A stretch of 64,000 nucleotides of DNA from Dehalococcoidia bacterium (GTDB taxonomy: Bacteria > Chloroflexota > Dehalococcoidia > Plut-88900), in the NCBI GenBank assembly GCA_965249275.1, contig CBDFLQ010000006.1, positions 288,001 to 352,000 on the forward strand. The letters are read 5' to 3'. The notes beneath the pieces are model-generated. The model was not told where the DNA came from. It searched no databases and was given only the letters and a program-made list of their open reading frames with translations. The position numbers and the translations under genes were made by a program. Shown piece by piece: positions 1,715 through 46,948 of this stretch. Every line of letters starts with the position of its first letter. Position 1 is the stretch's first letter.

Positions 1715-1935
1715 CCCCTCTCCTTCAATAAGACCTTTGCGTGACCGATGTTGGCAGGGCCGGGGCCGCTCGTGCTGAGGCTCTCGAAGTATGAGCGGGG
1801 AGGTGGAGGTCACATCATCTGGACAATACAACAGAGGCAATCTGTAGTTGCACACAGGCCTCTCGATGGGCCGTAGATGCGCCTCTGGCGTGATAGGGCT
1901 AGCGTCGAAGACTCGCCGAGGAGAGTGAGGGTGAA
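1715..1935 (+). repeat. Composite family A repeat carrying a MITE-like insert and two micro-hairpin inserts
   Basis: Aligns to uninterrupted copy 4341-4380 after removing 1730-1867, 1871-1892 and 1905-1925. Confidence 0.8.
1730..1862. mobile_element. Degenerate MITE-like element
   Basis: Imperfect terminal inverted repeats AAGACCTTTGCGTGAC / GTTGCACACAGGCCTC (10/16, mostly transitions), flanked by TCAAT/TCGAT; second, right-deleted copy begins at 20858 (GGGACCCTTGCATAAC) with the same internal hairpin. Confidence 0.55.
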
Positions 1936-1982
1936 TTGAGTCTATAAGAATTAGACACCTAAAGTGTCGACTCACTGAAAGC

Positions 1983-2786
1983 TCAGGGGAGCGACAGTAC
2001 CCCACCCATCCACCCCACCAGGTCCCCTTCTTCCAACACCCTAATCCCCAACCCCCGAGCCCTCTCCACCTGCTTCTCCGTCGTATACCCATACGCGGCG
2101 AGATAGCAATTCACCCCTAGCCCCTTCGCCGACTCCAAATGTGCCACCTGGTCGTCCACGAAGTGGATATCGGAATAGGAGACCTTGGACGCCTCAGTGA
2201 CCAGCCGCATATGCACGTTCTTGTCTGGGGAAGCCCCGACCATGTCCTTCCCAAGAACATGCCCGTCCGGCAGGGTGAAACCGTTATGCTCCAGGATTCC
2301 CTTGGAAACGACGCTGGGCTTGGAGGTCGTAACGAAGACATTCCCCAAATCGCCCTGACGCTCACTAAGAGCTTGGATCATGCCCGGATACAGGGGGTTG
2401 CGGTCCATCCAACCGGCCTCATCCCGTTCCCGAAAGCCCGCCCGATACCGCTGAAACGCAGCCTCCAGTTCTGGCCCCGACTCCACGCCGAACAAGCCCA
2501 GCAGGTCCGGCAGCCGAGCCTCCAGCGCATCATCGAAGTCCTTCTGGTCGGACATGGGCACCCCTAGATCGAGCAAGTACAGGATCATTAGGTAATCTCG
2601 ACCGTCCCTGATTAAGGGCCTCATCCGGTAGAATCCGTCCTTGAAGTAGTCGGGAACAGGAGAGGCTAGAGGATCGAATTCTTCACCCTTCGCCTGGCAG
2701 AAAGCGCCGTAAGCGGACACAACGCACTCGGCGGCGCTGTCGCATATCACACCGTCAAAATCTAAAGCTATGACGTTGGAGTTCAT
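1983..2786 (-). CDS. HAD-superfamily hydrolase
   Basis: Motif I DFDGVICDS, TTSK, FVDD motif IV, AAYGY. Confidence 0.85.
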   Translation of the reverse strand: MNSNVIALDFDGVICDSAAECVVSAYGAFCQAKGEEFDPLASPVPDYFKDGFYRMRPLIRDGRDYLMILYLLDLGVPMSDQKDFDDALEARLPDLLGLFGVESGPELEAAFQRYRAGFRERDEAGWMDRNPLYPGMIQALSERQGDLGNVFVTTSKPSVVSKGILEHNGFTLPDGHVLGKDMVGASPDKNVHMRLVTEASKVSYSDIHFVDDQVAHLESAKGLGVNCYLAAYGYTTEKQVERARGLGIRVLEEGDLVGWMGGVLSLP

Positions 2787-2849
2787 TATTTACACCTGCA
2801 TGGGAAAGCCTTCTTGCCCTTGAAATGAATTGGGGCAAGAAGGCTTCGG

Positions 2850-2878
2850 TTGACTGAGATGGCATCGACTATTATCAT
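2850..2878 (+). promoter_or_regulatory. sigma70-type promoter for tatA
   Basis: TTGACT-N17-TATCAT, 36 nt upstream of tatA start. Confidence 0.65.
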
Positions 2879-2914
2879 TGAGTCTACACTACTCACCTTG
2901 AGGGGGACAAAAAC

Positions 2915-3157
2915 ATGCCCTTAGGCGGCTTCATTGGGGGCCCGGGTATAGGCCTGCCCGAGATACTGGTAGTCCTGTTAATAATCGTCATCATCTTCGG
3001 CGTGGGTAAACTGCCCGAGATCGGCGGAGCCTTGGGCAAGGGCATTCGGGAGTTCAAGAAGTCCTCCACCGAGGTAGACAAGGTGATCCAGGACGTCAAG
3101 GAACCCCTCAAGGCCGAGGTTCCTAAGGCCGAGCGGAAGCCCCACATCCCCGAGTAG
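2915..3157 (+). CDS. tatA: Twin-arginine translocase TatA/TatE subunit
   Basis: GLPEILVVLLIIVIIFGVGKLPEIGGALGKGIREFKK signature; GAGGGG RBS. Confidence 0.93.
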   Translation: MPLGGFIGGPGIGLPEILVVLLIIVIIFGVGKLPEIGGALGKGIREFKKSSTEVDKVIQDVKEPLKAEVPKAERKPHIPE

Positions 3158-3190
3158 CCTCATTCCCGTACCCGTCCGTACCAGGCATCC

Positions 3191-4282
3191 TCAGATTGCC
3201 TGAGAACGCGCCCGAATCCCCTCCACGTCCACCCCCACCTCCAAGGCTATCGCCAGCACCTGATCCCAGTGCTCCTCTCGCACCGGCACCCCCTCCCGAG
3301 ACCTGCGTTCGTATTCCTCTTGTGCCCGCTCGCCGGGCAATACGATCTTCTCGAACCCCGATGCCAATTCGGAGCCTTTCACGTTTCTGATCATCTCGTC
3401 GACTTTTGCCTTGAAGTCATCAAGCGGTTGCAGGTTTCCAACGTTCAAGGCCATTAAGAAGAAGCCGCCGGTCCACGGTTCGTCGGGAGTGGGGAGGAAG
3501 GGAATGGTTTTGGCAGTCGTCCCACCAGATGCAATCCCGGCTAACACGTCAACGAATATAAGCCACCCCATCCCTTTTGGCCCGAGTGGCAGTATCGCAC
3601 CCAGTTGCTCCGAGCCCCGCTTTGATGGATCGACAATTAGTGGCACAGGATCGCCCGTGCGTACTCCGTCAGGCCCGACAAGAGGATCGTCCGGTATCGA
3701 CTCCTTATCCCTTGCCGAAAGCACCACGTGCCCGTGCGAAACCGAGCTCATCGCCCCGTCGAATATGATGGGCCTCTCTGTCCCTGCTGGTACTACAAAG
3801 GCTAAAGGGTTGGTATTGAACACCGGCTCCCGACCTCCCCACCCGGCCACCAAAGGCACCCCGTTGCTCATCGCCAACCCTATGAAATCGTGATCCAGCG
3901 CTCTCATCGCATACGCCGACGCCATCGTGAAGTCGTTGGTGTTGCGCACCCACACGATTCCGACTGTGGACTCCCGAGCCTTTTGAATAGCCAGGTCCAT
4001 ACCCCTGGTAGCGACTATCTGACCCGGACCGCCATTCCCATCTAACAGTGCGTAAGATGGTCCCTCGCTGACCGTCTCCGTCGGTGTTCCAAATCGCACG
4101 GCCCCGCTGCGAATCCACGGGTAAACAAGGTCGATACACGCAATCCCTTGTGTGTCCTTCCCGTGCAGGTCGCCCTGAACAAAGGGCTCGGCAAAGAGAC
4201 CGGCTTCTTCTTCAGACGCGCCTAAAGCCCGCGCCAAGGCTCGATACACCTCACGAAGAAATCCCGCTCTCTCAATCCTCAA
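3191..4282 (-). CDS. Ldh_2 (malate/L-lactate/sulfolactate dehydrogenase-like) oxidoreductase
   Basis: DLHG..TQG, LDGNGGPGQ, NTNPLAF, GPKGMG, LPGER motifs of the Ldh_2 family. Confidence 0.85.
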   Translation of the reverse strand: MRIERAGFLREVYRALARALGASEEEAGLFAEPFVQGDLHGKDTQGIACIDLVYPWIRSGAVRFGTPTETVSEGPSYALLDGNGGPGQIVATRGMDLAIQKARESTVGIVWVRNTNDFTMASAYAMRALDHDFIGLAMSNGVPLVAGWGGREPVFNTNPLAFVVPAGTERPIIFDGAMSSVSHGHVVLSARDKESIPDDPLVGPDGVRTGDPVPLIVDPSKRGSEQLGAILPLGPKGMGWLIFVDVLAGIASGGTTAKTIPFLPTPDEPWTGGFFLMALNVGNLQPLDDFKAKVDEMIRNVKGSELASGFEKIVLPGERAQEEYERRSREGVPVREEHWDQVLAIALEVGVDVEGIRARSQAI

Positions 4283-4340
4283 ACTATCTCCGGATTATTG
4301 TCCAACCTCAGCCCGAGGGCACAAGAAACGGGAGGCTTAT

Positions 4341-4380
4341 CCCCTCTCCCTCGATGGGAGAGGGCTAGGGTGAGGGTGAT
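4341..4380 (+). repeat. REP-like family A, minimal uninterrupted copy
   Basis: CCCCTCTCCC-TCGAT-GGGAGAGGG-CTAGGGTGAGGGTGAT; other copies at 1715, 20843, 28001, 29743, 33861, 46750 and degenerate ~43552. Confidence 0.9.
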
Positions 4381-4431
4381 CCTAGTTTTGCCCGAACAGT
4401 TGCGCTAAGGGCACTACATCGCGGACCCACG

Positions 4432-5181
4432 TCACTGCTCCAACTCGAGCATCCGCTTCTCAGCAGCCTTAATCCTGCGCCGATTGGCGAGCTTTGAAAG
4501 CCATATCCCTATCTCGTAAAGCACGATGATTGGGCTGGCGAGAAGCGTCTGGTTAAAAGGGTCGAACGTGGGTGTAAAGATGGCTGCCGCTATAAACGCA
4601 CCGACAATCGCCAGCTTCCTCCTCTTGGCAAAACTGCCTGGCTTCACAACCCCCAGCCTGGACAACAGGGTCATGACCAGAGGCGTCTGGAACGAAAGCC
4701 CGACCCACAGAGTGAGCGCGAGAATCAAGTTAATGTAGCGGCCGATTCTGATATTGGCCTCGGCAACGTCCCCCCCGAAGGTTAGGAGAAAGTTGAGGGC
4801 AGGGGGAATTAGGATGAACCAGGCAAACACTACGCCCGCAGCAAAGGAGAGGATGATTCCGGGCACGGATACGAGAACATAGCGCTTCTCTCTGGGCGTG
4901 AGGCCCGGGGCTGCGAACATGATCATCTGAAAGAGGACTACGGGCATGGCCAGGATGAATCCACCGAGGAGCGCCACCTTGAAGTAGGTGGTTATAAATT
5001 CAGTGGGGTCGATATAGACCAGCGGGGTATCGCCCGCGGGACCCTTCAGGAATTCCAAAACGCGGAACGTAAACACGGCGGAAATGCCCGTGCCAACTAA
5101 AAGAGCCAGCAGGGACTTGATAAACCGGCTCCGCAGCTCGTTCAGATGCCCCAGTATGGAGATCTTGTCGGGCGCGCTCAT
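4432..5181 (-). CDS. tatC: Twin-arginine translocase subunit TatC
   Basis: HLNELRSR, PGLTPREKR, FQTPL, TPTFDP, LYEIG; six hydrophobic segments. Confidence 0.95.
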   Translation of the reverse strand: MSAPDKISILGHLNELRSRFIKSLLALLVGTGISAVFTFRVLEFLKGPAGDTPLVYIDPTEFITTYFKVALLGGFILAMPVVLFQMIMFAAPGLTPREKRYVLVSVPGIILSFAAGVVFAWFILIPPALNFLLTFGGDVAEANIRIGRYINLILALTLWVGLSFQTPLVMTLLSRLGVVKPGSFAKRRKLAIVGAFIAAAIFTPTFDPFNQTLLASPIIVLYEIGIWLSKLANRRRIKAAEKRMLELEQ

Positions 5182-5471
5182 AGCTGGTGGGGGCCAGTGC
5201 GGTTTGGAGGAGGATCAGCCTTGGGAGAAGGTGTCACGTCCTCTTCCCTATCCTCTGAATGGAAGCCGACCGGCTGGTCGGTCGTAACGGTAGTCTCGGC
5301 CTTTGACTCTTCCACAGCAGCCGAGGCAAGGCCTTGCGCAGCGCGTTGAAACTCCTGGACCGCCCCGCGGAGGGACGTGACAAGTGAGATGAGTTTAGAA
5401 GGCCCGAAAAGCACCAAGGCTAGCGCCAGGATGACTAGGATTTCCAGGATTCCGACGTTTAGCGGGTTCAA
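5178..5471 (-). CDS. TatA/TatB family subunit (probable TatB)
   Basis: GILEILVILALALVLFGPSKL N-terminus; overlaps tatC start by 4 nt. Confidence 0.8.
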   Translation of the reverse strand: MNPLNVGILEILVILALALVLFGPSKLISLVTSLRGAVQEFQRAAQGLASAAVEESKAETTVTTDQPVGFHSEDREEDVTPSPKADPPPNRTGPHQL

Positions 5472-5582
5472 AACTGAGTATCGCCTGGTTTATCGGCCCA
5501 TTTGACTGGTACCCTTGGGAGTATAGCATGGTGATAGATGTTCCCCCTGATCCCGTTCACATAGAGGAGTGACATATCCCTC

Positions 5583-5611
5583 TTGACTTTATAATACATG
5601 TGTTCTATTAT
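5583..5611 (+). promoter_or_regulatory. Near-consensus sigma70 promoter with LexA-like box in the spacer
   Basis: TTGACT(5583-5588)-N17-TATTAT(5606-5611); AATAC-ATGT-GTTCT at 5593-5606. Confidence 0.7.
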
Positions 5612-5616
5612 TGGGC

Positions 5617-6310
5617 CAGTCTAGACCCGACACCCACCTTAAGGAGGTACCGCACAACCTAGGGAAGCCCACCCGACCCACCCGAGGACTCAACGTCTAA
5701 GCCCATCCCAAAGGGCGGCCCACAAGCCGTCCCACGGCTCAAGCGAACGCCGCCATCTCCTCTACCAAGGGCCCCGGCTATCCCTTCCCTGACCATCAGG
5801 CGATGGAAGACGCCCTGGTTCGCTAACGTTCCATGTGAGGCTCCTAACGGAGATGCCGCTCCTTCAAGCGGAATAGCGGTCGGATAGGCCCGGCGCCGAG
5901 GCCCTCTCGGTACACCGACTGCTCAATAAAGCCGGGAGCCGGTGGTCTACGCGCTCCGGGTCGCACCGGCAAACTTGGACACATTACGCCTGCAAGAGGC
6001 CCGGCATCGGACGCTGGACGGGCCTCCTTGCCGCCCTATAGCGGTGCAGCCAACCCCCGGAGTCGGACTCGGACCTGCTGGCCCTGAAGGTCCCTGCCCA
6101 TGTCCAGCGTATACAGGGCCACAGGCCGCAGCAGCGGCAAAAGCGGGCCGGGCGCCCTTGCCTCAGGGCGTCGGAGCACCCGAGGCACAGGAACAGGGGC
6201 AGCGTCCAGCAAGCGTCTTTCATCGCCTTCCCAAAACCCAACAGACAGAACTGAAACCGAAACCCCACAATCGAAGATGGAACATCCGCCTCTGGAGGAC
6301 TGAAGAAAAC
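5617..6310 (+). ncRNA. Candidate large structured non-coding RNA (family unknown; ends approximate)
   Basis: No credible CDS; 16-bp helix 5798-5813/6213-6228; stems 5875-5883/5915-5923, 5938-5944/5964-5970, 5992-6003/6019-6031, 6079-6086/6114-6121; promoter directly upstream. Confidence 0.55.
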
Positions 6311-6387
6311 GCCGGTGTGTCACTAATCTATTGAACGAATACACCCCCTTTCCCCTCCTCCCCTAACCCTGTTAACATTCTCGGCGC

Positions 6388-6681
6388 ATGGAACGGGAAC
6401 AGCTTCAGCAATTGATCTTCGAATCCGTCGAGGATTCTGCCATCGAACGATTTAAGGGCCGAGTCCCAGTCGGCCTCGGCAGGTCCACCGCCCGTGCCCT
6501 CATGTTCAAGATCACCTGCGATTGCGGCGTTACCGCCATGCTGTCGGTTGATACACCGGAAGAGGCCTCGGAAGAGAAGATCCACGACATGGTCCCCCAT
6601 CTAGCCAAAACCCTCGACAATCAGGCCTCCCAGTTCAAGCGCATCCCCTGTGATGCCCACTCCCGCATGTCTATGGGGTAG
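6388..6681 (+). CDS. Small hypothetical protein with CxC and CxxH motifs
   Basis: 97 aa, host-like codon usage, 24 nt upstream of the next gene; possible extended -10 TGtTAACAT at 6370-6378, no SD. Confidence 0.7.
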   Translation: MEREQLQQLIFESVEDSAIERFKGRVPVGLGRSTARALMFKITCDCGVTAMLSVDTPEEASEEKIHDMVPHLAKTLDNQASQFKRIPCDAHSRMSMG

Positions 6682-6705
6682 CCTTTCCCACGCCAGGAGA
6701 AAATC

Positions 6706-7821: not shown

Positions 7822-7884
7822 CCTCGCTTCTACAACCAACTTGTCCCCTCCGTCATTCCGGCCCCCAGTCCACGTCCATTTGCA

Positions 7885-7914
7885 TGTCATCCCGAGGCTC
7901 CGCGAGGGACCTAA
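7885..7914 (+). repeat. YGTCATYCC-tagged REP-like palindrome (family C), target of the IS5
   Basis: TGTCATCCCGAGGCTCCGCGAGGGACCTAA; copies at 27776, 27904, 32850, 35449, 41827, 42998, 43236, 43396. Confidence 0.88.
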
Positions 7915-9110
7915 GAAACCTCTGAACAAGTCTAAGGGCATAGGTAATAGGTAAGATAGGGAGAGTAAGGCCAAAGCTGAGGTGAGATTTGATGGAGCAG
8001 CCGACATTTGCAGACTTGGAATACGAGGGCAAGAAGCGAAAGACCCGCCGGGAGATATTTCTGGAGCGGATGGAGGACCTGGTTCCATGGGGAAAGTTAG
8101 AGGAGCGAATCCGGCCCTACTATTCCAGGGCGGGCCGTGGACGGAGGCCCTACGAGTTGTCGGTGATGCTGCGGATACACTGCGTGCAGCTGTTCTACAA
8201 CCTGAGCGATCCGGGCATGGAGGACATGCTCTACGAGGTGGAGTCGGTGAGGCGGTTCGCAGGTCTGAGGCTGTCCGGCCCCTTGCCTGACGAGACTACG
8301 ATACTGAACTTCCGCCATCTGCTGGAAGAGCAGGAGTTGGGTCGGGGGCTGTTCGAGGAGATCAACCGTCATCTGGAGTCTCGGGGACTGAGGCTCAGGG
8401 AGGGTACGATTGTGGATGCGAGCATCATCGAGGCGCCGGCGTCTACGAAGAACCGTGCTGGAGAGCGAGACCCCGATATGCACCAGGTGAAGAAGGGGAA
8501 GGAGTGGCACTTCGGTATGAAAGTGCACATTGGTGCAGACGCTGACACGGGGGTGGTGCACAGTATGAGTACGACAGCTGCGAACGTGCATGACGTGACG
8601 GAGGCGCACCGGCTGCTGCATGGAGGGGAGAGGCGAGTGTGGGGAGATGCGGGATATCAGGGAGTGGAGAAGCGGGCGGAGAATCGGGATATGGATGTGG
8701 AGTGGCGGGTGGCGATGAGACCTGGACGGCGTCGGAAACTGAGGGCGGGGAGCTGCGAGGCCTTAGCGGAGAAGAGCAAATCATCCATCAGGGCTAAGGT
8801 GGAGCATCCGTTCCTGTACGTGAAACGGCACTTCGGCTACGCCAAGGTCCGCTACAGGGGCTTGTACAAGAACACGCAACGGGTGGCGATGCTGCTGGGG
8901 CTGGCCAACTTGGTAAGGGCCGAGCGCCACTTAGCGGTGTGACGGAGGAGCAGTGTGGTCAAATCCGGGTCGATGGTGACTGGATGCCCTGACAGGCCAG
9001 AACATAGGATGCAAATAAGCCACCGAGACGCAACATTACGACCCAACCTCTCCCCAAAACTCCATGCAAGACAACCTAAGCTGGTTTACAGTGAGTTGTT
9101 CAGAGCTTCC
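7915..9110 (+). mobile_element. Complete IS5-family (IS5 subgroup) insertion sequence, 1196 bp
   Basis: TIRs GAAACCTCTGAACAAGTC (7915-7932) and GAGTTGTTCAGAGCTTCC (9093-9110), 15/18 match; 4-bp CTAA duplication at 7911-7914 and 9111-9114. Confidence 0.95.
7992..8942 (+). CDS. IS5 family DDE transposase
   Basis: YNLSDPGMED, PDETTILNFRHLLE, IVDASII, WHFGMKVHIG, GDAGYQG, RAKVEHPF. Confidence 0.96.
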   Translation: MEQPTFADLEYEGKKRKTRREIFLERMEDLVPWGKLEERIRPYYSRAGRGRRPYELSVMLRIHCVQLFYNLSDPGMEDMLYEVESVRRFAGLRLSGPLPDETTILNFRHLLEEQELGRGLFEEINRHLESRGLRLREGTIVDASIIEAPASTKNRAGERDPDMHQVKKGKEWHFGMKVHIGADADTGVVHSMSTTAANVHDVTEAHRLLHGGERRVWGDAGYQGVEKRAENRDMDVEWRVAMRPGRRRKLRAGSCEALAEKSKSSIRAKVEHPFLYVKRHFGYAKVRYRGLYKNTQRVAMLLGLANLVRAERHLAV

Positions 9111-9204
9111 CTAAGGCATAAGTCCGGTAATCTCACTCCTCTTAGACTACCACCCGAGCCTAAGAGAATTCCCTCTCCCCCTGTCATTTGTCCACCCCCC
9201 AGAC

Positions 9205-9250: not shown

Positions 9251-9292
9251 CTAATCTCAATTGGGCCGGGAGGAGTAAGATGAAGCGCTTAG

Positions 9293-20804: not shown

Positions 20805-20842
20805 AGCAGTGGTCGTCCTCCGTTCCGTGTGATGACTCTTAT

Positions 20843-21007
20843 CCCCTCTCCCTCGATGGGACCCTTGCATAACCCATTTGGGAGGAACTGGGGCCGCTCA
20901 TGCTGAGACTCTCGAAGTATGAGAGGGGGAGGGAGGAAAGGTGATCTGGATGGCGCCACTGGCGTGAGAGGCTAGGGCAGAATACTCGCCAAGGAGAGTG
21001 AGGGTGG
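20843..21007 (+). repeat. Composite family A repeat with truncated MITE and micro-hairpin inserts
   Basis: Same architecture as 1715-1935 with an internal deletion. Confidence 0.75.
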
Positions 21008-23485: not shown

Positions 23486-24856
23486 CTAATTTTGCCATAT
23501 TGCGCCGGCCACTGAGACCAAAGACCCGCCCATAGGGTCCGCCGGACACTGATCATAAGCTGTAACTTCCCCCGACACCCCCTCTCCCATCACCCGAAGT
23601 GCCAGGTATATAGGCGTCAATCCGCAAATGCGCCTCTGGTCCTGCTCTCTCCGTATCCCTTCCAGGAAACCCTCGGCATCTCCATTACAGGCAGCCTCAA
23701 GAGACAGGTAGTCGGCTCTCAAGAGAGCCGCTCGCTCGTTCCGGCCCCACGGCGCGTGGTCCCCGAAAACCGGGCCTACGTGCGCCAGGTCCCCCGCAGC
23801 TATTACCAAGGTCTTTCGACTCTCCATCACCCCCCGCAACTCCGACACCACAAAATCGAACGCCGCTTCCCCCTCCGCCACCCCACCCCCATTAACATAC
23901 CTACCCATATGACCGCACAGAACGGGCAAAACGTGAGGCAAACGCCCCTTGGGATTTGCCTTCCTAACCAGGTAGTGTAACCAGACCAGTGCCAACTCTA
24001 TCGAGTGCTCCTTGATGTGGTGCTCCTCTTCCTCAAACGCCGACTCCCCACCCAGCCCCGCCGCCAGAGACTTCGCCAACTCTTTGTCCGTGGGAAGCGG
24101 ACCCCACGGTGTCGCGTAGCTCTGTAGAGTCGGAGTTATCTTGCAGTCCCCCCCTGCATGGTCCGTCCCGAGAATTATTGCCAATTCACACTCTGCCGCC
24201 GCATCGGAAACATGCCGCCATGTCTTCGCATAGCTCCGGTGCCCTCGATGATAATCAATATGCGGACTCAGCACCCCCATCACGCGCCCCTCCGCCCCCG
24301 GTGAGGGGACGTCCTCATTCCGTTCGCCCTGATCTGCCGTAAGTCCGCCTGTGGAGGATCGAAGGGTTGATCGAACGGGATGAGGGCGTTGGGTTGGAGT
24401 TCTCTCAGTATGAAGAGGCTCCTCCCCCACCTCCTCCATATACCTATCAAACGTCTTCTCCAAAACAACCGGGTCCGCCGGATAGCTGGGCCCGGCCAAA
24501 GCGGGAGTCCTGTATGGCAAACCGCGGTACGACTCCAGCATCCGCGCCCGAGCCTCCTCGAATCGGGTCCCTTCCAACAGGAGCGCCTCGTCCAGGCGGC
24601 CAAAGAACGCGTCCACCTGTTCCTGCGTAATCGAAATCCCGTGAAGCAGCATAGCCGCCGTCCTGATGCTCGGCAGGTCCCTCTGCCCGTCGCTGAGAGC
24701 CAAGAGAGGAATCAACTGCACCGGTGCAAGAAGCTCCTCTCCCGAAAGCGACATCGGGTCCCGCAAATGCAGATACTCCCGACCCCCCTGCTGCACCCTC
24801 TTTATGTCCAAGGCTCTAAGCTTGGGCCGCAAATTCAAATCCCTCATCGCGCCCAA
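23486..24856 (-). CDS. AmmeMemoRadiSam system protein B (MEMO1 family) with internal repeat-derived insert
   Basis: AGPSYP, PHIDY, GTDH, EHSIE, GDLAHVG, ICG motifs. Confidence 0.9.
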   Translation of the reverse strand: MGAMRDLNLRPKLRALDIKRVQQGGREYLHLRDPMSLSGEELLAPVQLIPLLALSDGQRDLPSIRTAAMLLHGISITQEQVDAFFGRLDEALLLEGTRFEEARARMLESYRGLPYRTPALAGPSYPADPVVLEKTFDRYMEEVGEEPLHTERTPTQRPHPVRSTLRSSTGGLTADQGERNEDVPSPGAEGRVMGVLSPHIDYHRGHRSYAKTWRHVSDAAAECELAIILGTDHAGGDCKITPTLQSYATPWGPLPTDKELAKSLAAGLGGESAFEEEEHHIKEHSIELALVWLHYLVRKANPKGRLPHVLPVLCGHMGRYVNGGGVAEGEAAFDFVVSELRGVMESRKTLVIAAGDLAHVGPVFGDHAPWGRNERAALLRADYLSLEAACNGDAEGFLEGIRREQDQRRICGLTPIYLALRVMGEGVSGEVTAYDQCPADPMGGSLVSVAGAIWQN

Positions 24857-27775: not shown

Positions 27776-28091
27776 CGTCATTCCGGCCCTCGAGCCGGAA
27801 TCCATCCCCGCCCCTTCCCGTATGGGCAGGTCTCGTGCCTGCTCCATCTTTACCTCCCACCCTCCAAGCAGATTTAACCTCGCCATTCCGAGCCCTTACC
27901 CCCTGTCATTCCGAGGCTCCGCGAGGAATCTAAGGCATATTTCTCTCCCAACTAGACAATTGATTACCCCATCCACACCAAGCAGGCGTCTTGATCGTAT
28001 CCCCGTTTCCTCGACGAGAGAGGGCTAGGGTGAGGGTGATCCCATTCATGCAAACCGCCCACCTGTCTGCCAAGCAGACAGGTGGGCGGTT
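27776..28091 (+). repeat. Intergenic repeat cluster (family C x2, GTAG-like, family A, 18-bp perfect hairpin)
   Basis: 27776-27804, 27819-27844, 27904-27939, 28001-28040, 28053-28091. Confidence 0.82.
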
Positions 28092-29711: not shown

Positions 29712-29834
29712 TGCCTCTCCTCCTGCGAGTTTTATTTTCTGTCACCTCTCCCTTGATGGGTCGCAGATGCGCCCCTGGCGTGAGAGGGCTAGGGTGAGGA
29801 TGCGCTTACATCTCCACCTGGCCGTGTGTTGGGT

Positions 29835-32989: not shown

Positions 32990-33787
32990 TCACGAACGCA
33001 GAAACTCCTTCACAATAGCCGAAACCTTCTCACGCTGCTCCAACTGTGGAATGTGACCCGCGCCATCCAGTATCTGCGTCCGCACAGTCGTGTTTACCAT
33101 CCTGTCGGAAAACTCCTTGGCGTACTCCGGAGGCACCAGTGCATCCTGTTTTCCCCACAATATCAACGCCGGCGCCAACACCCGATAGATCCGGTTCTTC
33201 AACCCCTTGTCCGGTATCGGCCAAGTGAATTTGGATGTACAGGCGATAGCCCATGTCCTTGCAATAGTGAAGTTTTGGAACTCCTCCTCATCCTCCGGAA
33301 CCTCGAGGAAACCTTTGGCGAATTGACCCTCGGGGTCCGAGAACAGCGCTTTAACCATCGCATCCGGGCTCATCGCCGTCCAATCGAGCACCGGGTGATC
33401 GTCCAGCCAGAACCCGATGGGGTTCATCAGCGTCAACTTGCTAACCCTGTCTGGACTGCTCGCCGCAATCTCGGCCGCCAGCATGCCGCCGTAAGAATGC
33501 CCAATCACCGCCGGCGACTCCAACCCCAGGGCGTCAAACAGGTCGTAATGGTACAGCACGAGGTCCCACAGGGAGTCGATCTTCCGAATGTCGTCCGGGT
33601 CATGGAGCCCGGGGTGAAGTGGTGCGTACACCGTGAATTCGGAAGAGAGGTCATCCAGGAAACCGTCCCATCGCAGGCCTCCTGCCCCGTGCAGGAACAC
33701 GACGGGCGGGCCTTCCCCTGCAGTCATCACCTTCGGGTTGAGCAGCCCGTCCCTGATCTTTGGGAACCGGTCTTCCACAGTGACCAT
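32990..33787 (-). CDS. Alpha/beta hydrolase
   Basis: FLHGAGG, GHSYGG, WGKQD, AGHIP. Confidence 0.9.
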   Translation of the reverse strand: MVTVEDRFPKIRDGLLNPKVMTAGEGPPVVFLHGAGGLRWDGFLDDLSSEFTVYAPLHPGLHDPDDIRKIDSLWDLVLYHYDLFDALGLESPAVIGHSYGGMLAAEIAASSPDRVSKLTLMNPIGFWLDDHPVLDWTAMSPDAMVKALFSDPEGQFAKGFLEVPEDEEEFQNFTIARTWAIACTSKFTWPIPDKGLKNRIYRVLAPALILWGKQDALVPPEYAKEFSDRMVNTTVRTQILDGAGHIPQLEQREKVSAIVKEFLRS

Positions 33788-33979
33788 TTACTTCTCCTAT
33801 TAAGGTTGATCGAAAGACATCTGCGCACCTATGAATAAACCCCCGTCGGTTTCACAGCTTCCCCCTCCCTCGACGGGAGAGGGTCAGGGTCGAAGACTCG
33901 CCGAGGAGAGTGAGGGTGAATCTCGGTTCCTCAGGTTTCTCTTCTGTCACGCGCCTTTCGAGTCTTTACGAAATCCCCG

Positions 33980-35215
33980 CTAACCCACCACCGCGGCGGG
34001 TGCCTTCGTCTTCAGGGTCTCGGGCCACCAATGGTTCTCCCAATTGTCGTCCCAGATGTTCCGGATGTGCGGGAGCACCTCTTTGGCAAATATCTCGATG
34101 TTCTTCAGCGTCAGTTCGTGCGGCATGGACCCGATCTGCAGCAGCACCATCAGGTTGCCGACCCGCAGCCGCTTCACCGCATCCTTCAGCTGGTCCACCA
34201 CCGACTCTGGCCCACCGCTGATCACGTACTGATTATCTACGAAGTCCTTGAACTTCCATTCTTTCCACTGTCCCATCTGGTCGGCCCTGCCACCGCCGAG
34301 CTGCTTGATCCGGTTGACCAAGCTCTTGTAGTCCTGATATCCCGGCGCGGCCAAGAACTCGGGGGCCGTGGCCATGCACTTGTTGAAGAAGTACTGGATG
34401 TGTTTTTCGTAGTCCTTTTCCGCCTGTGCATCCGTCTCCGACACCGCCACAAGCTGTAGGAACCCCGCTCGGTACGGGTTGGCATCTAGCCCGTTGTAGT
34501 CAACTCTTTCCCAGAACTTCTCCATGATCTTCGTAGCGAACAGGTTCCCGTAGTAGCTTAGGTAGCAATAGCAGTAGTTCTTTTCGCACACGAAGTCCCA
34601 TGTGCTGCTGCTTCCCCCGCCCGGCACCCATATCGGGGGGTGAGGCTTCTGTATCGGCTTCGGCCAGACGTTCACGTAGCGCAACTGTGTGTACTTGCCG
34701 TTAAACGCGAACATCTCATCCCGAGTCCACGCATCCACGATCAGGTCGTGCGCCTCCCTGTACCTCTCCCGTTGTACTATCGGCGGTATTCCGTAGCAGA
34801 AGTTGGCGTCCGCCGACGTGCCCAGCGGCATCCCGGCAACCAGCCGACCCCCGCTTATGCAGTCCAGCATTGCGTACTCCTCAGCGATGCGGACGGGAGG
34901 GTGGGTGGTGGGCAGCGTGGCCCCCATCTGCACCAGGGCCGCGTTCTTCGTGCTCCGCGCCAGCACCGACCCCATGAGGTTCGGGTTCGGCATGAAACCG
35001 TACGCGTTCTGGTGGTGCTCGTTAACGCATATCCCGTCCATCCCCATCTTGTCGGCGTAGATCAGTTCGTCCAGCGTCCAGTTGTAGTACTGACCTACCC
35101 GTTCCGGGTCCGCGAGCTCCGACCAAGGCGGGTCCACCCACACCGAGTGATACCTATCCTCGAAATCATCGGGAAGCTCTCTGTGGGGCATCAGGTGGAA
35201 CATGGATACCTTCAA
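33980..35215 (-). CDS. LLM class flavin-dependent oxidoreductase
   Basis: NEHHQ, RIAEEYAMLD..SGGRL, PKPIQKPHPPIW. Confidence 0.9.
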   Translation of the reverse strand: MKVSMFHLMPHRELPDDFEDRYHSVWVDPPWSELADPERVGQYYNWTLDELIYADKMGMDGICVNEHHQNAYGFMPNPNLMGSVLARSTKNAALVQMGATLPTTHPPVRIAEEYAMLDCISGGRLVAGMPLGTSADANFCYGIPPIVQRERYREAHDLIVDAWTRDEMFAFNGKYTQLRYVNVWPKPIQKPHPPIWVPGGGSSSTWDFVCEKNYCYCYLSYYGNLFATKIMEKFWERVDYNGLDANPYRAGFLQLVAVSETDAQAEKDYEKHIQYFFNKCMATAPEFLAAPGYQDYKSLVNRIKQLGGGRADQMGQWKEWKFKDFVDNQYVISGGPESVVDQLKDAVKRLRVGNLMVLLQIGSMPHELTLKNIEIFAKEVLPHIRNIWDDNWENHWWPETLKTKAPAAVVG

Positions 35216-40644: not shown

Positions 40645-40673
40645 TAACCCGTTCCCCACTGGAGCCTTACCGA

Positions 40674-41813: not shown

Positions 41814-42005
41814 GCTTTGGTTTAACCGTCATTCCTGCGGAGGCAGGAATCCAGGGGTGGGGCATTCCGTTCGCCCTGAGCAGAGTCGAAGGGTCTCAAG
41901 AACGGAATGGGGGAGGAATTTCCCAGCCACGAATGTAATGTGTCCTCGAAAGAAACCAGCATTAGGCATCATCGGAGATTAAGCGAAGGGGATTAATACA
42001 CGACC

Positions 42006-42965
42006 ATGCCAAAAATCAACTCAGTCCTCGGCCCCCTAGACACCGCCGACATGGGCTTCACCCTCTCCCACGAGCACGTCCTCGTATCCTCCGCCGGCAT
42101 CCAGCAAATCTACCCCGAGTTCATACCCCGTGATGCGATAATCGAACGAGGCATCAACGACCTGAAAGTCGCCCACGCCGAGGGCGTCCAAACCATCATC
42201 GACGTCACCACTATCGACCTCGGCCGCGACATCCGTATGCTCGAAGACGTCTCCCGAGGCTCCGGCGTCAACATCATCGCCGCCACCGGTACTTGGCGAG
42301 ACATTCCTCGCGTCTTCTGGGAAGCCTCCCCCGACGCTATCGCTGCCCTCTACATCCGCGAGATCGAGCAGGGAATCGAGGGCACCGACATCAAGGCCGG
42401 CGTGATCAAGGTCGCCAACGACAAGGGAGGCGTAACACCTCAGGGCGAGATCATCCTCCGCGCCGCCGCCCGAGCCCACAAGGCCACCGGAGTCCCCATC
42501 TCAACTCACACCTGGGCCCCCGAGAGGGTCGGCCTCCAGCAGGCCCGCATCTTCGAAGAGGAGTGTGTCGATCTAAACCGCGTCTACGTCGGCCACAGCA
42601 ACGACACCACCAACGTCTCCTATCTCATCGAGCTCCTCGAAAAAGGCGCCTGGATCGGCCTCGACCGCTATCCCGGCTTCGCCTCCGAAGGCTCTGACAC
42701 CCCCGACTGGCAAGACCGCACCCGCACCGCCGTCCGGCTCATCGAGGCTGGTTACGGCCACAAGATAATGCTCAGCCACGACTGGTCCATCCCCATCTCC
42801 CGCCCCAGCGAGAAAGAAGTCGCCCGACGTGAAGCTCGCAACGCAGACGGCTACCTATTCATCCACCGCCACGTCATCCCTCTCCTCCGAGACCTCGGCA
42901 TCTCCCAGGACGCCATAGACCAAATGATGGTCCACAACCCCCGCAATTTCTTCTCCGCCTCCTAG
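42006..42965 (+). CDS. Phosphotriesterase-family protein
   Basis: TLSHEH, DLGRD, GVIKVA, ISTHT, VGH, LSHD. Confidence 0.92.
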   Translation: MPKINSVLGPLDTADMGFTLSHEHVLVSSAGIQQIYPEFIPRDAIIERGINDLKVAHAEGVQTIIDVTTIDLGRDIRMLEDVSRGSGVNIIAATGTWRDIPRVFWEASPDAIAALYIREIEQGIEGTDIKAGVIKVANDKGGVTPQGEIILRAAARAHKATGVPISTHTWAPERVGLQQARIFEEECVDLNRVYVGHSNDTTNVSYLIELLEKGAWIGLDRYPGFASEGSDTPDWQDRTRTAVRLIEAGYGHKIMLSHDWSIPISRPSEKEVARREARNADGYLFIHRHVIPLLRDLGISQDAIDQMMVHNPRNFFSAS

Positions 42966-42969
42966 CCCC

Positions 42970-43625
42970 TCGTCCATCATTCCCGTGCCTCCTCATTTGT
43001 CATCCCGATACGCCGAGAGGATTCTGGGGATGGGGAATTCCGTTCGCCCTGAGCTGAGTCGAAGGGTCTCAAGAACGGAATGGGGTGGTGCTCCCTTCCT
43101 TTAGCCACAATCCCTCGTGGTTGCCCTGGGGGGAGGTGTCGCCCACCCTGAGCTTGCTGAAAGTCCGCCGAGGCGGATCGAAGGGTCGAGCGGGCAGCTG
43201 CCCACGTACTGCCAAACCGTCGCGTCCGCCCCTCCCGTCATTCCCGACCCGGATCGGGAATCCATCCCCGGAAAGGGCCGCCCACCCTGTCACAGATCCG
43301 CTGAGGCGGAAGGCACTCGAAGGGTCGAGCGAGGGAAGACCCACACACTGCCCATCCGTCACGCCTGCCCGACTCCAACCCACCCCCCTCTCCCTCGTCA
43401 TCCCGAGGCTCCGCGAGGGATCTGGGGTGGGGCCTCCCCCTCCCAACTCTCCTAGCCTGCCTTCTCTTTGGTACAGATCTGTCGGTCATGTTGCGGCGCA
43501 ACATGACCGACAGATCAATTAAAACTGGGCGGGTGGGCGGGACTCCACTTATCCCTCGGCGTGGATGGGACATCCCCTCCGGCACAAAAGGGGATGGGGT
43601 CGAAGACTCGCCGAGGCGAGTGACA
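42970..43625 (+). repeat. Dense cluster of REP-like elements (families A, B, C, micro-hairpins, perfect palindrome)
   Basis: Units at 42998, 43037, 43141, 43236, 43278, 43396, 43476, ~43552, 43600. Confidence 0.85.
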
Positions 43626-43852
43626 TCACCTCCTCGACTCAATGAAAACACATGTGCTATCTTTACCTGAATGATCCAACACCCGGAAAAGACCCCCCGA
43701 CAAGCTATGAAGCAAAAGAGCTCACATTTGACTCGCCTCAGGCACAAAGACCCACCGGCCCAATACAAATTTCTTAGCAAACAATCAAAAATCATGCCTG
43801 AGCCCGCGCAACAATCAAAAGTCGTTCTCCGGCCATATCTCACACCTCCCCT

Positions 43853-43901
43853 TTGACACCCGACACACCTATCGCTACCATTAGTAACCGCAACTACTTG
43901 C
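43853..43901 (+). promoter_or_regulatory. Promoter and candidate metalloregulator operator for the metal ABC transporter
   Basis: TTGACA(43853)-N17-TACCAT(43876-43881) followed by GCAA-CTAC-TTGC (43890-43901). Confidence 0.6.
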
Positions 43902-43935
43902 AACAACACTTCATCGCATTAAGCGGTTCTATGCC

Positions 43936-44925
43936 ATGCCCAAGCTCTTTACTCTTTTCCTCATCACCCTCATCGCCCTCGCCTGCGGCTCTACCTCCAA
44001 CCCCTCCTCCGGCAAACTCAGCGTAGTGACCACCGTCGCACCCATCACCAGCATCGTCGAGAACATCGGCGGCAACCGCATCCACCTCGAGGGCATAGTC
44101 CCCGAGGGGACCAACTCCCACACCTACGAACCCTCTCCCTCAATAGCCAAAACCCTCACCCAGGCAGACCTCATCATCGCCAATGGCCTTTTCCTCGAAG
44201 AACCCACCCTCAACCTCGCCGACAGCGTCAAACAGGACGACACCCCCATCCTCCTCCTCGGTGACAACACCATCTCCCAAGACCAATGGGCCTTCGACTT
44301 CACCTTCCCAGAGTCCGGCGACCACCCCAACCCCCACCTCTGGCCCGACCCCAACCTCGCCTTACTTTACGCCCAACTTGTCCACGACTCCCTCGTCTCC
44401 CTAGACCCCTCCAATAAGGAGTACTACGATGACAACCTTGCCGCCTTTACCGTTAGAATAGACCGCCTCGACAACGCCATCCGCGAAGGTATATCCACTA
44501 TTTCTCCCGACAACCGCAGACTCCTCACCTATCATGACTCCTGGGCCTATTTCGCCCGCACCTACGACGTCGAGATCATCGGCGCAATCCAGCCATCCGA
44601 TTTCAGCGAGCCCTCCCCCCAGGAAATGGCCCGCCTCATCCTCCAGGTCCGAGGCCTCGGCGTCCCCGCCGTATTCGGCTCCGAGGTCTTCCCCAGCAAG
44701 GCCCTCGAGCAGATCGCCCGAGAGTCCGGCGCCCTATACAGCGATGAGCTCTCCGACGATGACCTTCCCGGCCTGCCCGGTGACCCTGACCATTCCTACC
44801 TTGGCCTCATGACCCGGAACATGATCACCATGATCGGAGCTCTTGGCGGCGAGGTTGGCCCCTTCCATAACCTCGACTCATCCCTCGTGTTCGAAGGCCC
44901 CTCTACCGCCATCTACCCGCAGTAG
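43936..44925 (+). CDS. Zn/Mn ABC transporter substrate-binding lipoprotein (ZnuA/TroA family)
   Basis: ALAC lipobox, SHTYEP, NGLFLE, NPHLW, YHDSWAYF, SEPSP. Confidence 0.92.
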   Translation: MPKLFTLFLITLIALACGSTSNPSSGKLSVVTTVAPITSIVENIGGNRIHLEGIVPEGTNSHTYEPSPSIAKTLTQADLIIANGLFLEEPTLNLADSVKQDDTPILLLGDNTISQDQWAFDFTFPESGDHPNPHLWPDPNLALLYAQLVHDSLVSLDPSNKEYYDDNLAAFTVRIDRLDNAIREGISTISPDNRRLLTYHDSWAYFARTYDVEIIGAIQPSDFSEPSPQEMARLILQVRGLGVPAVFGSEVFPSKALEQIARESGALYSDELSDDDLPGLPGDPDHSYLGLMTRNMITMIGALGGEVGPFHNLDSSLVFEGPSTAIYPQ

Positions 44926-44933
44926 GTAACTCT

Positions 44934-45797
44934 TTGCTTCATCCTGGCTCTCATCCCCGAACCACCGGCACCCCCATCGTGGCCCTGGACAACGTCTCCT
45001 GCGGATACGACGGGCAGTCCGTCCTATCCGGCTTGGACCTAAGAATCATGCCCGGCGATTTCGTCGGACTGCTCGGACCCAGCGGTTCCGGTAAGACCAC
45101 TCTGCTCCGTGTCATTCTTGGCGCGGTCCGACTCTTCTCCGGCAGAGTCCTGCTCGATGGAGTCCCCGTCGGCCCCAGACGGCCTCCCATTGGCTACGTT
45201 CCCCAGCTCGATACCATTGACTGGAACTTCCCCGTCACTGTGCAGGAAGTTGTACTCATGGGTGCCGCCATGCGCAAGCCCTTCTTCCCTTGGCACTCTT
45301 CCCAGCAGGGCCGTAACGCCAGGGTGATCATGGAGCGCCTCGGCATTGCCCATCTCGCCCACAGGCACATAAGGCAGCTCTCCGGCGGACAGCAGCAACG
45401 CGTCTTCCTCGCCCGAGCCCTCATCAGCAACCCCAGGCTCCTCCTTCTTGACGAACCTACTGCCGGAGTCGACATCAAGACCCGGGACGACATCATGCAC
45501 CTGCTTCACGAGCTTAACCACCAGGGCGTGACCATCGTGATGACCACCCACGAGATTAACTCCGTCGCCGCCCACCTGCCGCAAGTCGTCTGCATCAATG
45601 GTGGCATTATTGCCCAGGGCCCTCCCACCGACGTCTTCACCCCCGACATCCTGAGTCGCACCTACGGCGCCGACATGCCAGTCATCCGCTACCAGGGCCT
45701 CGCCCTCGTGGCGGAACGCCCTCACGTCTACGGCCCCACCGCCGACCAGCACACCGGAAAGGAACCTCACCTCCACACCCATGCCCCCGATTCTTGA
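44934..45797 (+). CDS. Metal ABC transporter ATP-binding protein
   Basis: GPSGSGKT, GYVPQ, LSGGQQQR, LLLDEP. Confidence 0.93.
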   Translation: MLHPGSHPRTTGTPIVALDNVSCGYDGQSVLSGLDLRIMPGDFVGLLGPSGSGKTTLLRVILGAVRLFSGRVLLDGVPVGPRRPPIGYVPQLDTIDWNFPVTVQEVVLMGAAMRKPFFPWHSSQQGRNARVIMERLGIAHLAHRHIRQLSGGQQQRVFLARALISNPRLLLLDEPTAGVDIKTRDDIMHLLHELNHQGVTIVMTTHEINSVAAHLPQVVCINGGIIAQGPPTDVFTPDILSRTYGADMPVIRYQGLALVAERPHVYGPTADQHTGKEPHLHTHAPDS

Positions 45798-46644
45798 ACC
45801 CTTCCAGTTCGAGTTCTTCGTCAAGGGTCTGGTCGCCGCCACCCTCGCCGGTGGCCTCTGCGGCCTGATCGGCGTCTACATCGTCCTCCGCGGCATGGCC
45901 TATATAGGTCACGGCCTCTCTCATGCCGTCTTCGGAGGTGCCGTAGTTAGCTATGTTATGTCTATCAATTTCTTCGTGGGTGCCAGCATCTGGGGCTTCC
46001 TCTCCGCCCTTCTCATCACCCTGACCACTCGCAAAAGGGTCATAGGCGCTGACGCCGCCATCGGCATCGTAACAACCGCCAGCTTCGCCCTCGGCGTCGC
46101 CATTATCAGCACCCAGCGCACCTTCACCCGCAGCTTCGAGGCCGCACTAATCGGCGACATCCTCGGCGTCGAGAGGGGCGACCTCGTGGCCCTTGTAGCC
46201 GTATCAATTGGCACGGTCCTCTTGGTACTTCTCGGCTACAAGCTCATCCTTTTCACCACCTTCGACCCCGAGGTAGCCCGCTTCTACGGCGTCCCGACCG
46301 CCTGGGTAGACACCGCCTTCTCCCTGGTCCTTGCCGGCGTCATCGTCGTCTCGATGCAGATTCTCGGCGTCACTATGATCGCCGCCGCCATTGTCATACC
46401 TCCCATCGTCGCCCGACTCATCACCAACAAGTTCTCCCATATGCTGCTCCTCTCCACCGCCATCGGCGCCTTCTGCGGTTTCTTCGGCATCTACATCAGC
46501 TATTGGGCCGACGTTTCGTCGGGAGCCACCATCGTGCTTTTCGCCGCCGCGCTCTTCCTCTTGGCAATGGCCTGGAGCACCTTCTGGCGAAGGTTGCCCT
46601 TCTCTCGACGCCCTCGCCCACCCACCGCCACTCCCGGCCTCTAA
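45781..46644 (+). CDS. Metal ABC transporter permease (ZnuB/ABC-3)
   Basis: GHGLSHA, DAAIG, TFDPEVA, SSGATIV. Confidence 0.93.
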   Translation: MPPILEPFQFEFFVKGLVAATLAGGLCGLIGVYIVLRGMAYIGHGLSHAVFGGAVVSYVMSINFFVGASIWGFLSALLITLTTRKRVIGADAAIGIVTTASFALGVAIISTQRTFTRSFEAALIGDILGVERGDLVALVAVSIGTVLLVLLGYKLILFTTFDPEVARFYGVPTAWVDTAFSLVLAGVIVVSMQILGVTMIAAAIVIPPIVARLITNKFSHMLLLSTAIGAFCGFFGIYISYWADVSSGATIVLFAAALFLLAMAWSTFWRRLPFSRRPRPPTATPGL

Positions 46645-46948
46645 GCAACCTATTAACTCTACGCAACCCCGTTCGCAATTTCTCATATGCGGTCCCTCTC
46701 TCAATGAGACCGCACCACTCTAATCCCGGATGCTGAGGGGGTGTCCAATCCCCTCTCTGTCGATGGGAGAGGGCTAGGGCCGTAGGCTCGCCGAGGAGAG
46801 TGAGGGTGTTCCGAGTGAGCAAAAGGACAAAGCGTATAGTTATGCGAAATGCTCAACCCCCCAGGCACTGGTCATCCGACTCCTCATGGTGTAACTTGAA
46901 CTTCACCCGCATAGATTGCCCAATGGGGCTCAATAACAGGAGACAACG

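Follow-up and report, generated by a model that had tools for sequence, protein, structure and literature searches.

The DNA considered here is a window of 64,000 nt (the whole stretch that was analysed) from a Dehalococcoidia bacterium, at positions 288001-352000 of contig C6 in assembly G000 (2.90 Mb, 7 contigs, 59% G+C). Several kinds of repeat in this window carry a very small insert, called the unit below, of which eleven copies were found. The unit is 21-22 nt long overall, and consists of a 7-nt unpaired tag, or leader, followed by a 6-bp G+C-rich stem closed by a loop of 2-3 nt; the tag consensus is YCGNAGR, with the variants CTGNAAG and YGGAACR. Ten of these copies had been listed in a preliminary description of the sequence, and each of them was recovered letter for letter and position for position on the plus strand, while the eleventh, at 6278-6299, had been overlooked there.

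Tagged hairpin units in the window and in the genome

Host repeats of family A receive units in their hairpin and in their tail. Within the hairpin, CCGTAGA-TGCGCC-TCT-GGCGTG (1871-1892) lies 3 nt into the 3' arm (ctcgatggg^agaggg, the caret marking the insertion point), and TCGCAGA-TGCGCC-CCT-GGCGTG is found at 29761-29782. In the tail, TCGAAGA-CTCGCC-GA-GGAGAG occurs both at 1905-1925 (gggctagSg^tgagggtga) and at 33890-33910, CCGTAGG-CTCGCC-GA-GGAGAG at 46780-46800, and CAGAATA-CTCGCC-AA-GGAGAG, whose leader is degenerate, at 20978-20998. A family-B host harbors CCGTAAG-TCCGCC-TGT-GGAGGA at 24337-24358 (gccctgatctg^tcgaaggg), and family-B-type hosts carry CTGAAAG-TCCGCC-GA-GGCGGA at 43157-43177 (ctgagcttg^tcgaagggtcgagcg) and TCACAGA-TCCGCT-GA-GGCGGA at 43290-43310 (caccctg^aggcactcgaaggg). 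TCGAAGA-CTCGCC-GA-GGCGAG (43600-43620) stands between ggggatgggg and tgacatc, and the additional unit, TGGAACA-TCCGCC-TCT-GGAGGA (6278-6299), comes after a resident leader, TCGAAGA at 6271-6277, within the 3' part of a repeat of ~800 nt. All eleven lie on the plus strand, as do five insert-free hosts that correspond to their earlier description: those of family A at 4341-4381 (hairpin plus tail ctagggtgagggtga, with both insertion sites empty) and 28001-28041, and those of family B at 1652-1698 (cattccgctcgccctgagc...gtcgaagggtctcaagagcggaatg), 41863-41909 and 43037-43083.

The motif is in clear excess over chance, and not, as had been considered, as frequent in shuffled sequence: the window contains 44 instances of the bare core CGCC-N2/3-GGMG, compared with 19.9 +/- 6.0 in 100 shuffles, none of which reaches 44, and a strict motif (leader YBRNAVR, 6/6 paired stem NNCGYY, loop of 2-3) has 145 matches in the whole genome, against 23, 17, 9, 11 and 14 in five genomes simulated by a first-order Markov process. 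A covariance model trained on the eleven window units gave at least 144 genome matches at E<=1, a lower bound because 150 of about 3200 candidates were scored; applied to the window with filters off, it returned its eleven seeds and nothing further below E 0.02. A curated genome set contains 195 units, of which 117 measure 21 nt and the other 78 measure 22 nt. Their most frequent leader is TCGAAGA (52), followed by TGGAACA (23), CCGTAGG (22), TCGTAGA (18), TCGCAGA (17), CTGAAAG (17) and others, and their stems belong mainly to the types TG..C..TG (52), TC..A..GA (32), TC..C..GG (27), CT..A..AG (23) and TC..C..GA (23). No Rfam family matched the window at gathering thresholds, nor the segment 5450-6450 at E<=5. 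An origin of the unit from ribosomal RNA was discarded, as the 16S locus has no match to it. Three unit or host strings found no match in the literature searched, and searches on the topics of small dispersed repeats (SDRs) and of Chloroflexi repetitive extragenic palindromic (REP) elements with their REP-associated tyrosine transposases (RAYTs) returned nothing on this genus.

The outer pairs of the stem covary, as had been proposed: the eleven window units combine CG/UA/UG and CG/UA/GU at these positions, with a score reached by none of 500 shuffles, and controls with slid alignments scored far lower. The term hairpin holds in general, with a reservation for the GGAG subtypes, which have a conserved G·A mismatch at the fourth stem pair (5 of the 10 distinct window units) and scarcely fold alone. 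In a set of 202 units picked by leader and inner core alone, with the outer pairing unconstrained, the outermost pair is Watson-Crick in 99, G·T in 88, A·C in 3 and other in 12, and the second pair is Watson-Crick in 133, G·T in 61, A·C in 3 and other in 5. Since G·T is tolerated while A·C, which would correspond to pairing of the complementary strand, is rare, we infer that folding takes place in the written strand, be it single-stranded DNA or RNA.

Filled and empty sites, nesting and differences between relatives

Twenty-two site types were compared genome-wide by asking how often their flanks are joined (empty) or lie 19-24 nt apart (filled). The A-tail site agagggctaggg^tgagggtgattc has 56 empty and 27 filled copies, the A-loop site tccctcgatggg^agagggctaggg 66 and 17, ccgctcgtgctg^aggctctcgaag 49 and 14, ccgctcgccctg^agccgagtcgaa (gccctg^agc) 43 and 14, and cccccgagccgg^aatccatccctg 17 and 6 (22 in a looser cluster). 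Empty paralogues exist for nearly all sites, as the preliminary description had led one to expect, and the inserts measure 21-22 nt almost without exception. The four sites recognized at that time give way to about 49 site clusters across the genome, the 25 largest of which hold 171 units, and recurrent site types number at least about 20, in several unrelated repeat families, with a fixed orientation of the unit relative to its host. The rule that units always follow a G is true of the ten units from which it was drawn, and fails genome-wide, where the preceding base is G in 160 of the 195 units and A in 31 (82% and 16%); the insertion point is thus preceded by a purine, and almost never followed by a G.

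A single site type can contain quite different units. At ccgg^aatcc, for example, at least six leader types are found (TCGAAGA in 10 copies, CTGAAAG in 3, TCGCAGA in 3 and CTGCAAG in 2 among them), together with six types of loop (GA, AA, TCA, GG, TAA and TA). Such variation of leaders, stems and loops at one site type is difficult to reconcile with a single ancestral composite.

Units also serve as hosts for one another. Fourteen of the 195 lie inside another unit, and excising the inner unit restores the outer one; the outer unit is interrupted after nt 7, at the junction of tag and stem, in 8 cases; in 5 others the break follows nt 9, and in a single one nt 16. All 8 inner units at the nt-7 position are YGGAACR-led, so that target preference differs between subfamilies, the YGGAACR-led one entering other units exactly at the tag/stem junction. 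A nest three units deep is present at C6:919843, and at the 6278 site of the window, paralogues occur in four states, namely empty and longer by 22, 29 and 44 nt. Five pairs of units on the same strand abut directly.

Could the unit be what is left of something longer? The leader followed by the 5' arm occurs 235 times, and is closed by a 2-3-nt loop in 183 of them. The idea that the unit is the footprint of a large transposon was rejected, the other 52 occurrences being point-mutated, nested or due to chance in coding regions, with no long form among them. Likewise, descent by deletion from one long ancestral repeat, which had been named as an outcome that would overturn the proposal, finds no long forms to start from, and unrelated hosts, one of them in other lineages, carry the unit. 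A templating of the leader by the upstream flank was also considered. The two resemble each other at one of five offsets (217 matches, against 198.5 +/- 8.7 expected, p about 0.015), and templating or microhomology was set aside, the other four offsets being null and the signal too weak to use.

Eight relatives of the same genus (16S identity 95-100%) allow orthologous sites to be compared. Regions collinear with the whole window were stitched from G002, G005, G003 and G001, and three of them were aligned with it, at 92.6%, 90.8% and 89.9% identity. Five orthologous sites, recognized by their matching unique flanks, carry a unit in one genome and lack it precisely in another. The unit at window position 1871 is present in G000 and G002 and absent from G005 (flanks matching at 31/45 and 41/45), the one at 33890 is present in G000 and absent from G002 (right unique flank 43/45), and so is the one at 43290, whose boundaries are unambiguous; a unit at position 3172 of G002 is missing from G003, and one at position 43569 of G003 is missing from G005. 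No base is duplicated at any of these five junctions, most clearly at 43290, so the absence of target duplication put forward in the preliminary description stands: units are precisely inserted and/or removed, with no target duplication. A miniature inverted-repeat element (MITE) of a DDE transposon was rejected on the same ground (as at 43290), together with the length of 21-22 nt and the lack of long internal forms.

Other orthologous comparisons extend this picture. Near window position 58997, G002 and G005 have a YGGAGCA-led unit nested in a resident unit, and G003 has the resident with no nested unit. The 1905 unit is also found in G002, and in G005 with the leader CCGAAGA, and the units at 29761 and 43600 are identical at the orthologous G005 sites. 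The G003 orthologue of the 24337 unit has kept stem and loop (TCCGCC TGT GGAGGA), and carries the leader CTGCAAG instead of CCGTAAG (2 of 7 letters differ), so that the tag has either changed more quickly than the hairpin or been exchanged. Other genomes lack the entire host repeat at many sites, which implies a fast turnover of these intergenic regions. Public sequencing runs were also inspected: relatives 90-99% alike occur in four runs from four studies, in contigs that are short and broken at repeats. In run X1, one contig with about 95% likeness to the window covers 33760-34573 and includes 21 gap letters, the size of the 33890 unit; if the gap falls there, this would fit an absence of that unit, as a hint only.

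Strand polarity and distribution

The GC skew of G000 is unusually strong, reaching +/-0.18 per 100 kb, and in regions where |skew| exceeds 0.03 the written strand of the unit lies on the C-rich strand in 156 of 176 cases. The dnaA gene, at 162 kb of contig C5, adjoins a switch of the skew from minus to plus, and units around it are mostly on the plus strand to its left and on the minus strand to its right. The leading strand of replication is usually G-rich, and the written strand, being C-rich, would therefore be the lagging strand. The REP-like host families are themselves all strand-polar to a nearly complete degree, the repeats being G-rich and yet located on the C-rich strand. The orientation of neighboring genes has little explanatory power for that of the units: 142 of the 195 units lie outside crude open reading frame (ORF) calls and 53 inside, and the 142 are distributed as 52 sense co-directional, 35 antisense, 31 convergent and 24 divergent. 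Pairs of units on opposite strands within 4 kb are only 7 in number.

Beyond G000, an exact scan for TCGNAGATGCGCCGAGGCGTG of 185,579 species genomes returned 41 stretches. Several belong to metagenome-assembled genomes (MAGs) of Dehalococcoidia with chromosomes of 3.0-3.4 Mb and the same host repeats as G000, others to two unclassified MAGs of 50% G+C and to two MAGs titled Desulfovibrionales and Thermodesulfobacteriota, and four further records have a single match each that looks like chance in coding sequence. Whole-genome counts of AGATGCGCC-N2/3-GGCGTG amount to 18, 8, 5, 10 and 7 in the five other carriers G031-G035, where the reversed control gives 0. G031 and G032 carry the unit in another host, the palindrome ggcccgccgcgg^cgggcc, which is also found exact and empty 9 times in G031 and 4 times in G032. 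Across the class (301 genomes including G000), this subtype is abundant only in the genus, with 38 copies in G000 and 3-91 in all 8 relatives (91 in G004, 68 in G001); three sister genera have none, and 13 other genomes have 1-2. A strict covariance scan of the family gave matches only in G000, G001, G002, G003 and G005, at a threshold too strict for other subtypes. The loose pattern GTAGNNNCGCCN{2,3}GGCG, searched in 401 genomes of the phylum, four of them flagged as unpublished and supporting no claim here, is nearly throughout about as frequent as its reversed control. That a 21-mer stays nearly letter-identical across unrelated lineages points to something conserved that recognizes it, and to horizontal spread.

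A different GTAG-tagged hairpin word, GTAGAGACGCCCCGGCG, is repeated many times in G398 and G327, from another family of the phylum, which suggests that other tagged-hairpin families exist elsewhere in it.

Interpretation, known systems and other repeats of the window

Paralogous and orthologous differences, nesting and the diversity of units per site all support the proposal of the preliminary description, a minimal non-autonomous mobile insert in other repeats. On balance, the units are probably minimal, non-autonomous, REP-like mobile elements that act as one strand and are moved by a trans-acting activity. The mechanism can be sketched only in outline, as single-stranded, linked to replication, sequence-specific and operating in trans. 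The element would act as its written strand, on the lagging (C-rich) strand; it would probably be cut out as single-stranded DNA and pasted or copied in that form, in time with replication and in a manner like that of REP/RAYT or IS200/IS605 elements; the activity would be supplied in trans, presumably by something other than a recognizable Y1/HUH transposase, TnpB or reverse transcriptase, none of which appears to provide it in the genus; and once established in a host repeat, the unit could spread passively whenever the host or a larger composite is copied.

Several observations weigh against this interpretation. The hairpins are weak as naked DNA (predicted folding energies between -3.9 and -5.5 kcal/mol), that of the GGAGAG type hardly forms by itself (-0.2 kcal/mol), and the energies of both strands are within 0.6 kcal/mol of each other; any functional structure is probably held by something else. 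Empty hosts are even more polar than units (of 227, 215 are on the C-rich strand and 5 on the G-rich one, the other 7 lying where skew is low), and the strand bias of the units may be inherited from them via the fixed orientation. The five orthologous differences may each record an insertion or an excision, matches in G001 being paralogous and G007 having no match; they bear on past events, and movement may or may not continue today. Some copies have clearly moved as part of larger composites: the arrays at 1714-1933 and 20842-21006 are collinear paralogues, about 79% alike, which share the order of a family-B-type hairpin, a family-A repeat with a loop unit and a tail unit, implying that whole mosaics are copied along with their inserts, and the 20978 unit probably spread with its composite host in this way. 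Finally, the strand that folds is the lagging one, which serves as template of the leading strand, while elements of the IS608 type are reported to use the opposite strand (see PMC6006769).

The search for a mobilising enzyme adds to these difficulties. Y1_Tnp (PF01797) is found in none of the nine genus genomes, while the control gave hits in 6 of 14 known genomes, E. coli among them, and phmmer comparison of the six Y1 proteins of G031-G035 with all ORFs of G000 gave nothing below E 0.04. TnpB (PF07282) exceeds its cut-off in 1 of the nine, and RVT_1 (PF00078) is present in 3 (G003, G006 and G008), and not in the high-copy genomes G004 and G001. Among twelve genomes of the family, DUF559 (PF04480) occurs in 8, including 2 of 3 unit-free genera, and not in G001 or G004; GIY-YIG (PF01541) occurs in all 12, and so does not track the units; and IS110 (PF01548) occurs in 6, being missing from G000, G001, G006, G007 and G008 and present in the unit-free G011 and G009. 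The co-occurrence that had been suggested with Y1/RAYT, GIY-YIG, DUF559 or reverse transcriptase genes is thus negative for all four, and no known enzyme class tracks the units. In the other carriers, all five of which have Y1 genes, no unit lies within 1.5 kb of the six Y1 loci, and the proteins adjoining units gave scattered ordinary matches in G000, with nothing recurrent; in G000 itself, no gene flanked by inverted units (a REPtron) was found. As had been noted before, the window encodes no candidate, its sole transposase being of the IS5/IS4 DDE type (7989-8942), and such transposases make target duplications. The corresponding insertion sequence spans 7910-9113, its ORF 7989-8942 having DDE_Tnp_1 and DUF772 domains; it is absent at the orthologous G002 site, and copies 97-99% identical are present elsewhere in G002 and G005.

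If no mover is visible, does the present distribution call for one? Few ancient insertions, followed by passive spread through recombination, gene conversion and amplification of composites, would dispense with any unit-specific machinery at present. The host families are many and similar enough for recombination, the collinear arrays do carry units along, unit subfamily correlates with site type as descent would predict, and the searches of the genus for Y1, TnpB and RVT_1 brought no enzyme to light. Nevertheless, this account is rather unlikely, as the roughly 49 site clusters in unrelated hosts, the several leaders, stems and loops per site type, the nesting of units at defined positions in other units, and the same 21-mer in a different palindrome of unrelated 50%-GC genomes each need a true insertion step. 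The units may alternatively be fossil REPs, once moved by a Y1 tyrosine transposase that has since been lost, and reshaped later by deletion, conversion and turnover. An unpaired tag followed by a short stem is the design of GTAG-tagged REPs, as described in PMC3733652; GTAG itself is contained in the CCGTAGG and TCGTAGA tags, that is, in 40 of the 195 leaders, and the Y1_Tnp genes of G031-G035 would suit such a past. Most leaders nevertheless lack GTAG (TCGAAGA alone accounts for 52 of the 195), the few opposite-strand pairs offer no inverted-pair arrangement, and the Y1 loci of the other carriers have neither units nearby nor the aspect of a REPtron. Moreover, unit states differ even in the closest pair examined, G000 and G002, and as Y1 is missing from all nine genomes, the gene would have to have been lost in every lineage after its activity. 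Altogether, the fossil account is unlikely, and slightly more so than passive spread.

A further possibility, which we regard as distinctly improbable although it would explain the missing enzyme, is that the unit needs no transposase of its own. It would instead exploit a universal activity of replication or repair that works on the nascent lagging strand, such as a type IA topoisomerase, or flap processing together with ligation. Such a mode of movement would account for nine genomes with up to 91 copies and no Y1, TnpB or (mostly) reverse transcriptase, for the folded strand being the lagging strand, and for a near-identical 21-mer in unrelated phyla, inserted in whatever local palindrome is available. 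An element templated by RNA through a reverse transcriptase, or acting at the RNA level as a hairpin selected in 3' untranslated regions, would agree with wobble pairs of the G·U type being tolerated on one strand only, and with the moderately raised share of units that lie downstream of a same-sense gene (83 of the 142 intergenic ones, vs 45% of background intergenic regions). It is very unlikely, in view of the 59 of 142 intergenic units that have an opposite-sense gene upstream, of an orientation that follows GC skew and not adjacent genes, and of the distribution of RVT_1, found in three of nine genomes and in neither of those with the most copies. The least probable account, which can hardly be upheld, is that nothing was ever inserted, and that insert-free hosts arose from longer repeats by precise loss of a hairpin. 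Hairpins are indeed prone to deletion, and the orthologous differences can be read in both directions; however, the unit interrupts what in the empty family-A host is a complete hairpin of 9 bp, units are found in many unrelated hosts and in one another, no flanking direct repeats would drive slippage, and empty copies outnumber filled ones at most sites.

The mobile REP-like element favored here has its nearest described counterpart in Thermomicrobium roseum, where, according to Di Nocera et al. 2013 (PMC3733652), GTAG-23 units lie inside small palindromes, CCGSSCC(n3,4)GGSSCGG, that also exist in hundreds of empty copies; the analogy, drawn from description and not from sequence, concerns insertion within small palindromes with empty copies. 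In the same source, GTAG-tagged REP hairpins are described across phyla including Chloroflexi, together with RAYT transposases. The units resemble them as short palindromic sequences that bear an unpaired tag at one end, reach a high copy number (at least 144 here) and are mostly intergenic. They differ by the absence of RAYT/Y1 from 9 of 9 genus genomes, in part by the tag, which contains GTAG in about a fifth of the copies (CCGTAGG 22 and TCGTAGA 18 of 195), with one more base before the stem, by a stem of 6 bp, at the lower size limit, by a head-to-tail arrangement on one strand instead of inverted dimers (REPIN/BIME-like), and by self-nesting, which the available part of PMC3733652 does not describe for GTAG REPs. 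The RAYT feature having been looked for and not found, the units are set apart from the RAYT-REP system. The CGTC-tagged REPs of PMC3733652 are likewise a family of tagged hairpins for which no dedicated transposase was found; their tag is another one, their stems measure 8-9 bp, and neither nesting nor insertion polymorphism, both found here, is reported for them in the passages considered.

The units share with the IS200/IS605 family, whose single-strand 'peel and paste' transposition and miniature derivatives are treated in PMC6006769, several properties: no target duplication, recognition of a hairpin rather than of the sequence ends, an orientation tied to replication and the possibility of seamless excision. 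That family has two subterminal hairpins, a TnpA of the Y1 type and a target word of 4-5 nt, in contrast to one hairpin, no TnpA and only a preceding purine here, where the folded strand is moreover the lagging strand and not its template.

With both REPs and SDRs the units have in common their design and their parasitism of other repeats. Added to what characterizes REPs and SDRs are the lack of RAYT in nine genomes, the polarity, the defined rules of self-nesting and the conservation across lineages. The SDRs in question, SDR1-8 of Nostoc punctiforme and other heterocyst-forming cyanobacteria, attributed to Elhai et al. (2008), are reportedly dispersed units of 21-27 nt, some of which are said to share a stem-loop with compensatory changes; they are also said to sit within other repeats and within one another, and to be precisely present or absent between relatives, with no known transposase. 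Size, nesting and precise presence or absence are all found again in the units described here. The two nevertheless belong to different phyla and are not known to be related in sequence, the comparison being one of descriptions only, and the present units are strand-polar with replication, have a REP-like tag and are near letter-identical in unrelated lineages.

How the smallest bacterial repeats move, such as REPs with no RAYT, CGTC REPs and the SDRs of cyanobacteria, is a long-standing question, and the present genus makes it testable: the unit has 21-22 nt, boundaries exact to the base can be read from filled/empty pairs, the active strand is inferable, target rules differ between subfamilies, and copy numbers range from 3 to 91 among nine sequenced relatives that have no Y1. 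The presence of the same 21-mer in unrelated lineages makes possible a cross-phylum search, by phylogenetic profile, for the gene responsible. Should no such gene exist, DNA mobility free of a transposase would be indicated, and if that were true, the unit would be the smallest mobile DNA known that is autonomous in practice. Inserts also remodel intergenic hairpins (terminators, REP-like sites), and can be used as fine-scale strain markers.

Two other repeats of the window deserve mention. The ~800-nt repeat that hosts the 6278 unit is a non-coding dispersed element on the plus strand, at 5543-6343, in which the site caagcgaacg^ccgccatc near 5748 is empty and the 6270 site is filled. It is present in G000, G002 and G005, and absent from the locus in G003, with no target duplication. 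It has imperfect subterminal inverted repeats of ~20 bp (agtgaca... / ...tgtcact), and a putative sigma-70-like promoter was recognized by eye at about 5585-5613 (TTGACT, 17 nt, TATTAT). G000 contains 10 full-length copies that are 87-96% identical, 27-54 copies of the 5' part, and hundreds of pieces are found in the relatives. The region 52650-56000 contains tandem diverged paralogues on the minus strand, with ORFs at 52748-54172 and 54643-55959 (73-81% DNA identity) and internal periodic repeats of 18-21 nt, and near 55790, G002 and G005 have one 21-nt period more than G000 and G003.

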